Shown here in pieces: positions 2,139 to 7,543 of a stretch of 12,086 nt of DNA. Where the stretch lies: the IMG/VR virus record IMGVR_UViG_2703718792_000009; one strand, given 5' to 3'. Each line of letters starts with the position of its first letter. Position 1 is the first letter of the stretch. Source of the DNA: a virus (lineage: Duplodnaviria; Heunggongvirae; Uroviricota; Caudoviricetes). The position numbers were made by a program, and so were the translations under genes. The notes under the pieces were generated by a model. It was not told the DNA's origin. It was given only the letters and a program-made list of their open reading frames with translations, and did no database searches.

Positions 2139-3041
2139 ATGCCAAATTTACCGATGGGCGGATCGCAGGGTGAATTACCCTTAGTACCTACAGTAGAAGT
2201 TGTTGCTGATGGCATTCCTATGGGGGTGCTTAATGATGGAACCCCTTATCTAACTCTTTACGGTTTAGCCAAATTATGTGGCATAGATGAAGCACCTCTT
2301 CGAATGTTTACATCTAACTGGGAGACTGAAAAAAATAAGCCAAGAGGACAAAAAGTAGCTGCATACTTAGCTGAGAAAGGATTTAACAACGTTGACCGAC
2401 TGTATACCCGCGTCATAAATAGCTCAAACGTTGAAACACATGCTTATCCTGACTATGTTTGTATGGCTGTTCTTAGGTACTATGCCCTCGATGCCACAAA
2501 TTTTGATAGATCCGTTGCAATAGGAAACTTTGTTCGCTTAGCTGAATACACGCTCAAGCGAATGATCTATGAAAAAGCAAACTATAACCCCAACGCTGCC
2601 ATAGACGTTTCATTCGAAAACTATAGAGCTCGTATAAAGCTAAACAACCAAATACCAACAACTCATTTTGCTGTATTCAGAGAAATAGCAGATATTGCAA
2701 TGACGTTAATAGGAAATGGCTTTCCTATGGATGATACCACGTCACTAGACGGAAGCGTTGGAAATCACTGGGGAAAGTATTGGACAAAAAACAACCTTTC
2801 CGAGAGATTTGGTGATAGAGTTCAATATCAACACATTTTCCCTGAAAACTACAGGCAATCTGCAGCCAACAAGTACATAAAAGCCTGGATTTACCCTATC
2901 GAATCATTGGGGCTATTCAGGAAATGGCTTCACGATAACTATGCCATGGAAAAACTACCCAAATATCTTGGAAACAAAAAAATCAGTAACATAACTGAAC
3001 TATTGGAAGCCGTCAAAAAACCAGCATTACCAAACCAGTGA
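2139..3041 (+). CDS. Hypothetical 300-aa protein in the rexAB-equivalent slot (between cI and PL/nutL); candidate prophage-encoded anti-phage (abortive infection / exclusion) protein
   Basis: Long clean ORF; AAGGA 12 nt upstream of ATG; followed by a strong intrinsic terminator. Not RexA-like. No P-loop or obvious nuclease motif seen. Looks AT-richer than cI by eye (not computed). Confidence 0.8.
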   Translation: MPNLPMGGSQGELPLVPTVEVVADGIPMGVLNDGTPYLTLYGLAKLCGIDEAPLRMFTSNWETEKNKPRGQKVAAYLAEKGFNNVDRLYTRVINSSNVETHAYPDYVCMAVLRYYALDATNFDRSVAIGNFVRLAEYTLKRMIYEKANYNPNAAIDVSFENYRARIKLNNQIPTTHFAVFREIADIAMTLIGNGFPMDDTTSLDGSVGNHWGKYWTKNNLSERFGDRVQYQHIFPENYRQSAANKYIKAWIYPIESLGLFRKWLHDNYAMEKLPKYLGNKKISNITELLEAVKKPALPNQ

Positions 3042-3828: not shown

Positions 3829-4452
3829 ATGTCATCAATCCGCTTAACTACGAGAATGAAAGAGGATATCGCTCGTAACGCTTTAATTAAGTCCGGGGTT
3901 TTCACCGAACTTGAAGAAGTAACAAAGTTAAAGAACCGGCTTGCACTTGACGCCAGAGTTGTTGCGTTTGGCGGTAAAAAGAAAACTGAAGAAGTGGATC
4001 AGTTATCATCCAGATTAATGGCTATAAGTGAAGAACTTGAAAAGATGGGATGTTCATTTTACTCATACGATGTTCGTTCTACTTCAATTTATCTGACTGT
4101 ATCTGGCAGAAGGGTTGGCTGGTATTCATATGGAAAAGACGGTAACGGCGAAGATATATTGCTCCCTACTCCTAACAGAGATAAATGCATGTTTAACGCA
4201 GAACACGAAATAACAAAAAGGTTTGATGAAATCTGCGCATTGCAACAAAAACTTGAAGCCAGGAAAAAGGATATCGAATCAAATGTATGGGCTGCTTTGA
4301 ACTCAGTAACAACAGTTAAGCGACTTATTGAAGTTTGGCCTGAAAGCAAAGAATTGCTACCAAAAGAAGCAGATAAAGCAAGTACAGCACTTCCTGCTTT
4401 ACGGGTAGAAGATTTGAATAAGATGATTGGACTTCCTTCCGAGGCCGCATAG
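3829..4452 (+). CDS. Hypothetical 207-aa soluble protein in the N to cIII interval (ral/sieB-equivalent accessory slot)
   Basis: GAGAGGA RBS 6 nt before ATG 3829 (the track ORF begins at a TTG at 3769); no hydrophobic segments; no motif I recognise; stop codon sits in the loop of a terminator hairpin. Confidence 0.7.
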   Translation: MSSIRLTTRMKEDIARNALIKSGVFTELEEVTKLKNRLALDARVVAFGGKKKTEEVDQLSSRLMAISEELEKMGCSFYSYDVRSTSIYLTVSGRRVGWYSYGKDGNGEDILLPTPNRDKCMFNAEHEITKRFDEICALQQKLEARKKDIESNVWAALNSVTTVKRLIEVWPESKELLPKEADKASTALPALRVEDLNKMIGLPSEAA

Positions 4453-4467
4453 TCGGCCTTTATTTTT
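4442..4467 (+). terminator. Rho-independent terminator (tL1-like) overlapping the stop of the 207-aa gene
   Basis: AGGCCG-catagt-CGGCCT stem followed by TTATTTTT. Confidence 0.5.
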
Positions 4468-4557
4468 GGCATAAACAACAGAATAAACACAGCACTGTGT
4501 ATTCATTCCAACGAGTGAATACACGGAGCAATTTAAAGCGTAAATAAGGAGCACACC

Positions 4558-4698
4558 ATGCAATATGCCATTGCAGGGTGGCCTGTTGCTGGCTGCCCTT
4601 CCGAATCTTTACTTGAGCGAATCACACGTAAATTACGTGACGGATGGAAACGACTCATCGACGTACTTAATCAGCCAGGAGTTCCCCAAAATGGATAA
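4558..4698 (+). CDS. cIII: cIII (46 aa), lambda cIII-like
   Basis: MQYAIAGWPVAGCPSESLLERITRKLRDGWKRLIDVLNQPGVPQNG, near-identical to the recalled lambda cIII N-terminal 46 aa; AAGGAG RBS upstream. Confidence 0.85.
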   Translation: MQYAIAGWPVAGCPSESLLERITRKLRDGWKRLIDVLNQPGVPQNG

Positions 4699-4804
4699 AA
4701 CACTTATGGCTATCCAGACTAAATTCACTATCGCCACTTTTATTGGCGATGAAAAGATGTTTCGTGAAGCCGTCGAAGCCTACAGGAAATGGAGGTCAAA
4801 ATGA
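4691..4804 (+). CDS. kil: Kil-like small protein (37 aa), overlapping the 3' end of cIII
   Basis: MDKTLMAIQTKFTIATFIGDEKMFREAVEAYRKWRSK; position and overlap with cIII as for lambda kil, and similar to my recollection of lambda Kil, which I cannot verify. Confidence 0.55.
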   Translation: MDKTLMAIQTKFTIATFIGDEKMFREAVEAYRKWRSK

Positions 4805-4989
4805 TTCCGGTAGAACTGGCGAAAACTCCAGAGTTAAGTCGATTAAAAAGAGAATATCACATTGCTGAGGCTCGTTACTGGCGTAAAGCGGGAGATAAAT
4901 CAAAGAAACAACTTTGTTTATGGCAGGCACAAAGAGAGCGCATGAATGAGCGCGAGTTTCTTTCCTCCCCATCCGAATTACCATTCTGA
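4801..4989 (+). CDS. Hypothetical 62-aa protein in the position lambda uses for gam
   Basis: GGAGG 5 nt before ATG 4801; ATGA overlap with the kil stop; basic, no recognised motif. Confidence 0.5.
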   Translation: MIPVELAKTPELSRLKREYHIAEARYWRKAGDKSKKQLCLWQAQRERMNEREFLSSPSELPF

Positions 4990-4997
4990 GGTGAATT

Positions 4998-5705
4998 ATG
5001 GATTTGAATAAATTCGATGAGCCATTCAGCCCCGAAGATATCGAATGGCGAATACAGCAAAGCGGTAAAACACGCGATGGCAAGGTGTGGGCTATGGTGC
5101 TGGCTTATGTCACGAACCGGGCAATCATGAAACGCCTGGACGATGTTTGCGGAAAAGCAGGATGGCGCAATGAATACCGCGATATTCCCAACAACGGCGG
5201 CGTTGAATGCGGCATATCAATAAAGATTGATTCCGAATGGGTCACCAAATGGGATGCTGCTGAAAACACGCAGGTAGAAGCCGTCAAAGGTGGTCGTTCC
5301 GGTGCAATGAAGCGCGCTGCCGTTCAGTGGGGAATCGGTCGGTATCTGTATAACCTTGAGGAAGGTTTCGCACAAACATCTCTCGATAAAAAGCAGGGGT
5401 GGCACAGGGCAAAACTGAAAGATGGAACAGGATTTTACTGGCTCCCTCCATCTCTGCCGGGATGGGCAATCCCAGCATCAGATAACAAACCATCACCAGA
5501 AAATACCAACCAGAAATCTCCATCGGTTGACTGCGAACAAATCCTGAAAGACTTCAGCGATTATGCGTCAACAGAAACTGACAAGAAAAAACTCATCGAG
5601 CGTTATCAGCGTGACTGGCAATTAATGGCTGGCAACGAGGAGGCGCAGGCTAAATGCGTTCAGGTAATGAACATCAGAGTTAACGAACTAAAACAGGCGG
5701 CATAA
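4998..5705 (+). CDS. Rad52/Sak-like single-strand annealing protein (235 aa)
   Basis: N-terminal pattern DIEWRIQQSGKTRDGKVWAMVLAYVTNRAIMKRLDDVCGKAGWRNEY is typical of Rad52-family phage annealing proteins; GAGGTG RBS; sits where lambda has bet. Confidence 0.7.
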   Translation: MDLNKFDEPFSPEDIEWRIQQSGKTRDGKVWAMVLAYVTNRAIMKRLDDVCGKAGWRNEYRDIPNNGGVECGISIKIDSEWVTKWDAAENTQVEAVKGGRSGAMKRAAVQWGIGRYLYNLEEGFAQTSLDKKQGWHRAKLKDGTGFYWLPPSLPGWAIPASDNKPSPENTNQKSPSVDCEQILKDFSDYASTETDKKKLIERYQRDWQLMAGNEEAQAKCVQVMNIRVNELKQAA

Positions 5706-6173
5706 ATGTCTCACTTGGACGGAATTATTAAAAGATTCGAGTCCAGCTACAAAGTTAATGAAACAACAGGTTGCTGGGAGTCTACCTATTCAAAAAACAA
5801 AGGAGGATACACAAAATTTGTAGCCTTTGGCGTAACAATGCTTTCTCATCGGGTTGCTTTTGAGCTTTATCACTCCCCCATTCCATCTGGGAAGATGGTT
5901 TGCCACAAATGCGATAACCCATGCTGCGTTAATCCTGAACATCTCTTTTTAGGTAGCGCGCAAGAAAACATGGACGACAAGATAGCAAAAGGAAGGCATC
6001 GTGGAGCCAAGAAAGGTCATGCTCATCATGGTGCAAAATTAACAGAGTGGCAGGTTATAGAAATTAGGAAAAGACTCTCTGAAAAAGAGAGTCAGTACAA
6101 GATAGCAAAAGACATGGGTGTATCTCAATCAATTATAAGCAACATAAAAACTGGCAAGAGGTGGAGCAAATGA
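5706..6173 (+). CDS. HNH endonuclease (155 aa), free-standing
   Basis: Core [27 protein letters not shown] (HNH with Cys-rich metal site); start is immediately after the annealing-protein stop and the stop overlaps the ssb start (ATGA). Confidence 0.8.
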
Positions 6174-6676
6174 GTTCTCGCGGGATAAATAAGGTGATTA
6201 TCCTTGGTCGGGTAGGACAAGACCCTGAAGTTCGATACTCACCATCAGGAACAGCGTTCGCTAACCTGACAATAGCCACGTCAGAACAATGGCGAGATAA
6301 AAATACTGGCGAGCAAAAGGAATTGACTGAATGGCATCGTGTTGCTGTATCCGGGAAACTTGCTGAGGTCGTGGGGCAGTATGTGAAAAAAGGTGATCAG
6401 ATTTATTTCGAGGGAATGCTGAGAACCAGAAAGTGGAAAGACCAGTCAGGGCAAGACCGTTACACAACCGAGGTTCATGTCGGAATTAATGGCGTGATGC
6501 AAATGCTTGGCGGCATTGGCGACAGCAAACAACAAGCAGCCAACAGGCAATCACAGAAGCCACAGCAGCAATCATCACCAGCACAACACAACGAACCTCC
6601 GATGGATTTTGACGACGATATACCCTTTGCACCAGTAACTCTCCCCTTCCCTCATCACGCTATTCACGCAATTTAA
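6170..6676 (+). CDS. ssb: Single-stranded DNA-binding protein SSB, with a 15-aa extension beyond the canonical DDDIPF tip
   Basis: [42 protein letters not shown]...TEWHRV...[11 protein letters not shown]...[11 protein letters not shown] aligns with E. coli SSB as recalled; the ORF continues [15 protein letters not shown] before the stop. Confidence 0.9.
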
Positions 6677-6684
6677 GGACTTAC

Positions 6685-7233
6685 ATGAATCACTTAATGG
6701 TTGACCTTGAAACAATGGGCAACGGTCCATACGCGCCAGTTATTTCTATTGGGGCGGTATTCTTTGACCCGAATACCGGAGAAACAGGAGAAGAGTTCTC
6801 GGTAAATATCTCGCTTGAGTCATCAATGCGATATCGGGCGCGTCCTGACGCTTCAACGATTTTATGGTGGATGGAACAGAGTGAAGAAGCCAGAAAATCG
6901 CTAACCAGCAACACTCAAGAGCTTTCAACGGCTCTTTCATGGTTATCTGAATTCATCATAAAGAACGCTAACCACAAATTCGTTCAGGTTTGGGGGAATG
7001 GAGCATCATTTGACTGCGTTATTCTCCGCAACAGTTATTCGCTGACAGGGCAGCCAGTTCCGTGGCAGTGGTGGAATGACCGCGACGTAAGAACAATCGT
7101 CGAGCTTGGAAAGGTAATAGGATTCGACCCTAAGCGAGATATGCCATTCAAAGGAACTCGCCACAACGCGCTTGATGATGCCATCCACCAAGCCAAATAC
7201 GTTTCAGCGATCTGGAAAAAGTTAGCTAAATAA
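6685..7233 (+). CDS. DnaQ-like (DEDDh) 3'-5' exonuclease (182 aa)
   Basis: Exo I MVDLETMG (D-x-E), Exo II-like WGNGASFDCVIL, Exo III HNALDDAIHQAKY (H-x4-D); AAGGA RBS. Confidence 0.75.
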   Translation: MNHLMVDLETMGNGPYAPVISIGAVFFDPNTGETGEEFSVNISLESSMRYRARPDASTILWWMEQSEEARKSLTSNTQELSTALSWLSEFIIKNANHKFVQVWGNGASFDCVILRNSYSLTGQPVPWQWWNDRDVRTIVELGKVIGFDPKRDMPFKGTRHNALDDAIHQAKYVSAIWKKLAK

Positions 7234-7249
7234 TCAACCGGAGAAAAAC

Positions 7250-7543
7250 ATGCCAGCGCCTTTGTATGGTGCGGATGACGCGCGCCGCTGTTCCGGCAAT
7301 TCCGTATCGGAGGTGCTGGATAAATTCAGAAAAAACTACGATCGGATAATGTCGCTACCGCAGGAAACGAAAGAGGAAAAGGAATTTCGCCATTGTATAT
7401 GGCTTGCAGAGAAAGAAGAACGCGAGCGAATTTACCAGACATCAATCCGACCATTCCGCAAAGCCACATATACCCACTTCCCTGAAATTGACCCGCGCCT
7501 GCGTAATTACCGCTCACGCTATGGCGCTATCAGTAATGACTGA
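7250..7543 (+). CDS. Hypothetical protein (97 aa)
   Basis: GGAGA RBS 5 nt before ATG; same-strand operon context; no motif recognised. Confidence 0.55.

Follow-up and report, generated by a model that had tools for sequence, protein, structure and literature searches.

The early left operon of the phage DNA studied here (12,086 nucleotides of the IMG/VR virus record IMGVR_UViG_2703718792_000009, class Caudoviricetes, referred to below as the window) raises the question of what stands where lambda has gam, i.e., after kil and before the gene of the annealing protein, and whether the occupant of this place does the work of the RecBCD inhibitor Gam. In a preliminary description, made from the sequence alone, the gene at positions 4801-4989 was recognized as a small basic open reading frame (ORF) of 62 codons, which is not gam, is translationally coupled to kil, follows lambda-like cIII and kil genes and lies directly before the gene of a Rad52-like annealing protein; its product was supposed to be a different inhibitor of RecBCD or of another host nuclease. 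The descriptive half of this account has stood the analysis, while the functional half has not. The gene encodes HkaM, an already catalogued, uncharacterized phage protein and not a new one, and the RecBCD inhibitor of this phage is Abc2, not HkaM. The reading that we prefer, with a probability of roughly 40%, is that HkaM is a small accessory protein, encoded at the head of the Abc2-type recombination module in P22-like and other lambdoid phages, and carries a docking end similar to the C-terminal tip of SSB, the protein that binds single-stranded DNA.

The hkaM-family ORF lies on the plus strand, consists of 62 codons and a stop codon (TGA, 4987-4989), as read from the sequence, and encodes a protein with an isoelectric point (pI) of 9.6 and a net charge of +4. 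Its ATG (4801-4803) and the stop codon of kil (4802-4804) overlap in the tetranucleotide ATGA; a Shine-Dalgarno sequence, GGAGG (4791-4795, plus strand), is read 5 nt upstream of this ATG. Another in-frame ATG, at 4789, would yield a protein of 66 amino acids; translation is unlikely to begin there, since this ATG overlaps the Shine-Dalgarno sequence of hkaM and since homologs found in other contexts start with MIPV right after an upstream stop codon. On the other side, 8 nt separate the stop codon of hkaM from the start of the gene of the Rad52-like single-strand annealing protein (4998-5705, plus strand; 235 amino acids; Pfam Rad52_Rad22, E = 5e-26; phrog_1097, E = 3.5e-130), whose own Shine-Dalgarno sequence, GAGGTGA (4988-4994, plus strand; read from the sequence), overlaps the hkaM stop. 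The window scan found no Rfam family, promoter-like site or terminator-like site inside the hkaM ORF. That the ORF is a real gene and not a chance one is established by its match to the phrog_1723 profile (E = 1.6e-33, residues 2-59 of 62), by the occurrence of the family in 107 phage records and of hkaM in 229 of 5426 complete E. coli genomes, where RefSeq annotates it as 'hypothetical protein', and by a ratio of nonsynonymous to synonymous substitution rates (dN/dS) of 0.07-0.39 in pairs with unsaturated dS; the gene is under purifying selection.

The window protein is 98% identical to HkaM of phage HK620 (NP_112046), 68% to Orf-66 of ST64T and 66% to gp50 of ES18, and the family also includes gp37 of epsilon34. 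These relatives share family and position with the window gene and show no material difference from it; in HK620, ST64T and ES18 it is flanked by kil and the annealase gene, and the spacing is identical to the base. The gene was first labelled 'arf' from the analogy of its position with that in P22, has no homology to P22 Arf and is an orphan (Hutinet et al., 2018, PMC5928155). The label 'recombinase', under which HkaM appears in PHROG/RefSeq, is unfounded, having neither an experimental nor a homology basis. No model of Pfam, NCBIfam or PADLOC matches HkaM, the PDB sequence profile search returned nothing below E = 1, and Foldseek against PDB and BFVD retrieved generic helical hairpins alone, all with E > 1. 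In a profile search of 1.84 billion representative proteins 21 matches were obtained at E ≤ 0.001; the full-length small proteins retrieved among them are HkaM family members, and two long ones, in which 5 and 7 stretches were matched, resemble noise from TPR-type repeats. As to the annotation of the HK620 record, its 'terminators' tL2C and tL2D are predictions.

One body of evidence for the preferred reading concerns the end of the HkaM chain. The structure predicted by AlphaFold2 from an alignment of 19 sequences (mean predicted local distance difference test score, pLDDT, 87.5) comprises a basic helical hairpin at codons 10-54 (4828-4962, plus strand), with helices 10-30 and 33-54 and pLDDT above 90 (93-97 for the blocks of residues 11-50), and a flexible tail, SSPSELPF, at codons 55-62 (4963-4986, plus strand), with pLDDT of 56-70, which ends with Pro61-Phe62-COOH (codons 4981-4986). 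Six or seven columns are invariant among the 19 sequences, whose identity goes down to 34%, namely S13, A24, R28, G31, E46, P61 and F62. The window protein ends with EFLSSPSELPF and fits the C-terminal pattern ...[FY][FL]L-linker-x-Pro-Phe-stop, a family feature defined in this analysis. The linker before the tip varies both in length and in sequence (SSPSELPF, DD-GKIPF, GD--ELPF, G---PCPF), and residue 56 of the E. coli variant is S, A, V or C. The Pro-Phe pair is the chain end in 40 of the 42 distinct HkaM proteins, the two exceptions being a variant deprived of its stop codon and, in the genome of a symbiont, a truncated pseudogene. A lost stop is seen at L083:2743-2949 (the same contig as L366), where TGA of an E. 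coli-type hkaM has become GGA and the protein is extended to ...ELPFGGELWI, so that this allele represents a natural 'capped tip'.

The conservation of Pro-Phe, including its extreme position at the chain end, acts at the protein level, since in 39 distinct junctions with the following gene the Pro is encoded by CCA, CCG, CCT or CCC, the Phe by TTC or TTT and the stop by TGA, TAG or TAA, and since the intergenic sequences 3' of hkaM differ among these junctions. The view that the pair is a by-product of the downstream Shine-Dalgarno sequence is largely rejected: it is kept with CCG, CCT and CCC, with TTT, with TAG and TAA, and at junctions devoid of GGTGA. The sequence GAGGTGA itself is kept in most junctions and missing in some that still encode Pro-Phe. 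Among the plus-strand ORFs of these loci the proteins ending with Pro-Phe are the HkaM members and SSBs, plus a single ORF of 77 amino acids. The SSBs in question are either of the bacterial type (...DDSIPF, ...DDDIPF) or of the HK620 type (NDYPPF), and an SSB ending in this way is encoded downstream in 109 of 153 loci.

The second body of evidence concerns the slot that the gene occupies. In the survey anchored on HkaM, the next gene encodes an annealase in all 172 loci having a downstream ORF, the gap between the two genes being 7-12 nt in nearly all of them; according to BLAST, 66 of these annealases are of the Sak4, 52 of the Rad52-like and 50 of the Erf type, and the remaining four genes are, by sequence reading, divergent or degraded Erf or Sak4-like ones. 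In the reverse survey, anchored on the annealases and performed with redundant IMG/VR samples (best 80 matches per scan, the counts reflecting sequenced diversity and not independent events), an HkaM-family gene was found upstream of Erf in 71 of 80 loci, of Sak4 in 72 of 79 and of the Rad52-like gene in all 80, which gives 223 of 239 (about 93%), and an Arf-type gene in eight, two and none of them, respectively, or 10 of 239. The single remaining Erf locus carries another acidic ORF, three of the five remaining Sak4 loci have other genes and two have none, and no other occupant was met at the Rad52-like loci. In none of the HkaM-bearing loci was Arf found. Because both sit upstream of annealase genes and were not found in the same locus, HkaM and Arf are interchangeable occupants of one slot, independent of the annealase family. 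The P22 order is kil-arf-erf-abc1-abc2, and the counterpart of HkaM in P22 is arf, which has the same slot and an unrelated sequence.

P22 Arf (accessory recombination function, 47 amino acids) resembles HkaM in its very small size and in the location of its gene directly 5' of the annealase gene in the early left operon, but is acidic (pI 4.1 versus 9.6) and ends with AGYYS instead of Pro-Phe; BLASTP of HkaM against P22 Arf gave no alignment at E ≤ 100. Arf aids recombination and is non-essential for it, its mechanism being unexplained (PMC12315714; PMC9836394). It has been suggested to be a DNA mimic (PMC9836394), which HkaM, in contrast, cannot be: mimicry in the style of Gam or gp5.9 is excluded, because every one of the 19 family members is basic, with a pI of 9.0-10.6. 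Loci of the 56-residue HkaM subfamily, which ends with PCPF, contain a candidate element, a conserved acidic ORF of 57 codons that overlaps the HkaM-like start in another frame; this putative gene (L049:3802-3975; positions about 3407-3577 in L114, L115, L126, L162, L163, L167, L170, L172 and L175) shares the heptapeptide SDEEFI(A/R) with P22 Arf.

The slot is tied to the annealase gene and not to kil. The opposite linkage was rejected, as kil is not directly upstream in L006, L007 and L095 and was undetected in many other loci, whereas an annealase gene always follows. Moreover, subtypes of HkaM are shuffled: an HkaM of the ELPF type is followed by a Sak4 or Rad52-like gene, and one of the PCPF type by a Rad52-like, Erf or Sak4 gene. 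Co-variation of the HkaM tip with the type of annealase or SSB was looked for and not seen. As the same HkaM subtype precedes different annealases and no such co-variation was seen, a partner specific to one annealase is disfavoured. One IMG/VR contig (L049:1304-6262) carries two recombination modules in tandem, the first with the order cIII-kil-HkaM-Sak4-SSB-truncated Abc2 and the second with the order cIII-like-kil-like-HkaM (PCPF type)-Rad52-like-SSB-exonuclease-Abc2; this arrangement is either a real duplication that arose by inter-phage recombination or an assembly chimera.

According to the reading preferred here, the basic helical hairpin, as modelled, would present a Pro-Phe-COOH peptide, which would work like the SSB tip (DDDIPF in E. 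coli, NDYPPF in the HK620 SSB) and might dock into a pocket for the SSB tip by way of its terminal Phe, which would be buried, and its free carboxylate. Such a pocket would more likely belong to a host SSB client, or be a feature common to annealases, than to one specific annealase, since HkaM is shuffled among annealase families; exonuclease I, RecQ, RecJ, RecO and PriA are candidate host clients. The likely outcome would be that single-stranded DNA leaving the Abc2-modified RecBCD is protected for, or handed to, the annealing pathway of the phage. The narrower proposal, namely that in HkaM the phage produces an imitation of the C-terminal tip of SSB, which would plug SSB-tip pockets of host genome-maintenance proteins or of the annealases themselves and reroute single-stranded DNA from the Abc2-hijacked RecBCD to phage annealing, is put forward tentatively, and we consider it doubtful in this strict form.

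Pockets binding the SSB tip are known to bury the terminal Phe and to anchor its alpha-carboxyl group on a basic lip, and removal of the Phe abolishes the interactions (PMC10164576); the NDYPPF tip of the HK620 SSB is required for stimulation of Sak4 (PMC5928155). The corresponding features were looked for in the HkaM family. A C-terminal Phe with a free alpha-carboxyl group is found in 40 of the 42 distinct proteins. The penultimate Pro, the position altered by the ssb-113 mutation (P176S), is the invariant P61. A flexible tether to a folded body is seen in the predicted structure, where the tail scores 56-70 and the hairpin above 90. Acidic residues before the tip, one or two in many HkaM members, are present in those ending with ELPF, DLPF, DMPF, EPPF and DPPF, and are absent from the GPCPF and GPAPF subfamily. 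The likeness to SSB lies in the flexible tail with its hydrophobic-Pro-Phe-COOH end; HkaM has neither an OB fold nor a long linker, its body being a predicted basic hairpin of about 45 residues. Competition between tails of this kind has a precedent in phage T7, in which the acidic C-terminal tails of gp2.5 and gp4, both ending with Phe, compete for the same docking sites on a partner; T7, however, belongs to another phage group, its tails are strongly acidic, and they have no sequence relation to HkaM.

A number of observations weigh against an SSB-tip-like docking end. The abundant 56-residue subfamily, which ends with GPCPF, contains no acidic residues before the tip and so has no stretch of Asp to contact the basic ridge of the pocket. 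In oligonucleotide recombineering, the one test published so far, sak4 and ssb gave the same result as the whole hkaM-containing module of HK620, HkaM being neither a help nor a hindrance, in an assay that bypasses end processing and in which the expression of HkaM was not verified (PMC5928155). At the nucleotide level, the Phe codon is TTC in 35 of the 39 distinct junctions, and the Shine-Dalgarno sequence of the next gene includes the stop codon, so some nucleotide-level constraint at the junction is possible. Finally, the Pro-Phe end could pack on the hairpin and be structural.

The last point leads to the first of the rival explanations, in which the Pro-Phe end is structural or intended for an unrelated partner and the basic hairpin is the active part, for example in binding nucleic acids, in tuning Kil or cell division (the tail of FtsZ has DIPAFL), or in regulating the expression of the annealase. 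We hold it to be unlikely. The hairpin is indeed the best-conserved and most confidently predicted part of a strongly basic protein, and the null result of oligonucleotide recombineering (PMC5928155) agrees with such a role, as does the translational coupling of hkaM to kil in the window and in many loci; this coupling, nevertheless, loses weight in view of the loci with kil missing directly upstream or undetected, in which the annealase gene still follows directly. Besides, the invariant A24, R28, G31 and E46 look, by inference, like positions of packing, turn and salt bridge and not like a binding surface. The linker tolerates insertions, deletions and substitutions, whereas Pro-Phe does not, and this is the pattern of a tethered peptide motif.

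The possibility raised in the preliminary description, that HkaM replaces Gam and inhibits or modifies RecBCD or another host nuclease by direct binding, is distinctly improbable in our estimation. HkaM does belong to a recombination module and was never seen together with Gam, and the inhibitor that accompanies it, Abc2, is when alone moderate in its effect on RecBCD in vitro; in P22 full activity needs Abc1 and Arf, whose roles are unexplained (PMC9836394; PMC12315714), and most HkaM phages are devoid of Abc1. However, the window possesses an abc2 gene of its own (7250-7543, plus strand; 97 amino acids; phrog_656 'abc2 anti-RecBCD', E = 7.7e-55; 93% identity to P22 Abc2), which is the anti-RecBCD gene of the module. 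HkaM loci with 3 kb or more of sequence on the downstream side numbered 140; Abc2 was detected downstream in 126 of them, Gam in none and Abc1 in three. In the divergent loci without detectable Abc2 that were inspected, the annealase and SSB genes are followed by one for a protein of 100-125 amino acids, which in at least one case has an Abc2-like C-terminus. Position also speaks against this explanation, hkaM being adjacent to the annealase gene in 100% of cases, whereas abc2 is 1-2.5 kb away; HkaM occupies the slot of arf and not that of gam.

Homology gives the explanation no support either. Comparison of HkaM with Gam, Abc1, Abc2, gp5.9 and DNA mimics, by profile, PDB and Foldseek searches and by pI, brought no match. 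In hhalign, the HkaM family was related to lambda Gam with a probability of 0.1%, to the Abc2 family (Pfam PF11043, phrog_656) with 0.15% and to P22 Abc1 with 0.2%. PDB entries exist for Gam, Abc2 and gp5.9 (named in PMC9836394), yet the HkaM profile matched none of them. Despite the common location of their genes, lambda Gam (138 amino acids, pI 5.5) is an acidic protein with no homology to the basic HkaM of 62 amino acids, and the basic pI of the whole family rules out inhibition by DNA mimicry. An indirect effect of HkaM on a host nuclease is possible, for instance through blocking the SSB-dependent recruitment of exonuclease I.

A further explanation links HkaM with Abc2 in another way: the x-Pro-Phe end would be gripped by the host prolyl isomerase PpiB, a role that Pro68-Phe69 seems to play in Abc2, and HkaM would act with or on the complex of Abc2, PpiB and RecBCD. 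We assign it little likelihood. Its starting point is a BLASTP alignment (E = 0.003) of HkaM residues 39-62 (CLWQAQRERMNEREFLSSPSELPF) with Abc2 residues 49-69, in which P61-F62 of HkaM falls on P68-F69 of Abc2. The P68A substitution deprives Abc2 of PpiB, and P68 has been modelled in the PpiB active site (PMC9836394). HkaM and Abc2 are, in addition, nearly always encoded together, and the two have once been joined by nature: the protein P0009, from one 36-kb contig, is an in-frame fusion HkaM(1-39)::Abc2(50-97), as could result if the annealase and SSB block between the two genes had been deleted entirely at the microhomology TGT/TATGGC. The local stretch of resemblance, C-L/I-W-x-A...ERE...x-P-F (4915-4986 and 7394-7456 of the window), is, however, confined to the E. 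coli variant of HkaM, other members having no CLW...ERE stretch, and homology of the two proteins was rejected when the similarity vanished in the profile comparison cited above (0.15%). A substrate of a prolyl isomerase need not be chain-terminal, whereas in 40 of the 42 distinct HkaM proteins the stop follows the Phe directly, and divergent Abc2-like proteins show P-I or P-V, not P-F, at this place. HkaM and P22 Abc2 share the module and a short local resemblance ending with x-P-F; they differ in that the P-F of Abc2 is internal, in the lack of homology at the profile level, and in that Abc2 is a RecC-binding modifier of RecBCD with a PpiB-binding Pro68.

Very improbable, lastly, is an ORF devoid of protein function, a spacer or leader that would be translated only to couple kil with the annealase gene. 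In its favour are the overlap of the start with the kil stop, that of the hkaM stop with the next Shine-Dalgarno sequence, and the high conservation of the CCATTCTGAGGTGA junction; it is contradicted by the dN/dS of 0.07-0.39, by the persistence of the invariant residues down to 34% identity, by the confidently predicted fold, by the retention of length and Pro-Phe end across differing stop codons and Shine-Dalgarno sequences, and by the separate Shine-Dalgarno sequences of hkaM and of the annealase gene.

The neighbours of hkaM complete the picture of the module, the elements at 4545-7543 all lying on the plus strand. At the 5' end of the cIII-kil-hkaM block a cIII thermoregulator RNA element (4545-4603; Rfam RF01804 Lambda_thermo, 88.5 bits, E = 4.7e-22) spans the start of cIII (4558-4698; 46 amino acids; Pfam Lambda_CIII, E = 3.1e-30; phrog_550). 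The next gene, kil (4691-4804; 37 amino acids; translation MDKTLMAIQTKFTIATFIGDEKMFREAVEAYRKWRSK), is of the lambda type and has the same layout as in HK620, ST64T and ES18; the Kil of L049, identical to that of the window, has 91% identity to lambda Kil over 34 amino acids, so that the lambda-like nature noted earlier for both genes is borne out. Kil has 37 amino acids in the window, HK620, ST64T and ES18 versus 47 in lambda, and departs from lambda Kil past residue 34, where the ribosome-binding site and the start of hkaM are embedded.

In the window's Rad52-like annealase and in annealases of the Erf family (L005:5255-5872, L007:1431-2057) the C-terminal domain (...KCVQVMNIR[VI]NELKQ[AV]A) is homologous, although the N-terminal annealing domains are different; the C-terminal domain may mediate binding to a partner. 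The gene of an HNH endonuclease (5706-6173; Pfam HNH_3, E = 1e-13) is inserted between those of the annealase and the SSB, and its 3' end overlaps the SSB start; since only a few related modules have an HNH gene, this one is likely to be a mobile insertion of the homing type. The protein P0029 is a frameshifted HkaM in fusion with an HNH of this sort.

The phage SSB (6161-6676; 171 amino acids; Pfam SSB, E = 1.8e-36) has its canonical MDFDDDIPF motif, with DDDIPF, inside the chain and not at its end: the motif is followed by an extension of 15 amino acids that holds a second LPF. The extension is kept in at least 32 related loci, one of them a Citrobacter prophage, and, judging from the sequence, would remove the free carboxylate that SSB-tip pockets require. 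Farther downstream, before abc2, a DnaQ-like 3'-5' exonuclease similar to Rv2179c is encoded (6685-7233; Pfam PF16473, E = 2.8e-73). Upstream of the block, the window contains a gene for a homolog of the abortive-infection protein BstA (2139-3041; 300 amino acids; PADLOC BstA, E = 4e-106; phrog_6287, E = 2e-131), which adjoins a cI-like repressor gene (1199-2020). A protein of 207 amino acids (3829-4452; Pfam Nmad5, nucleotide modification associated domain 5, E = 7.6e-72) is encoded just 5' of cIII; a terminator-like hairpin (4441-4460) follows its gene, which is present in some related loci only.

Taken by itself, the gene at 4801-4989 is ordinary, a widespread catalogued orphan in a well-studied module, in which abc2 already supplies the Gam-like role. 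More deserving of attention is the pattern over several hundred loci, in which the slot directly 5' of the annealase genes (Erf, Sak4 and Rad52-like) hardly ever stands empty; together with the statistics of Arf and HkaM in this slot, the family-wide Pro-Phe-COOH tip makes the function of HkaM directly testable. This bears on how phages of the Abc2 type pass single-stranded DNA made by RecBCD to their own annealase, on what Arf does in P22, and on whether portable Sak4, Erf or Rad52-like recombineering modules improve on double-stranded DNA when hkaM is included. If the proposal holds true, HkaM would be the first viral protein known to use tail mimicry against the SSB interaction hub, and the 'accessory recombination' slot of P22-like phages, long unexplained, would gain a mechanism.

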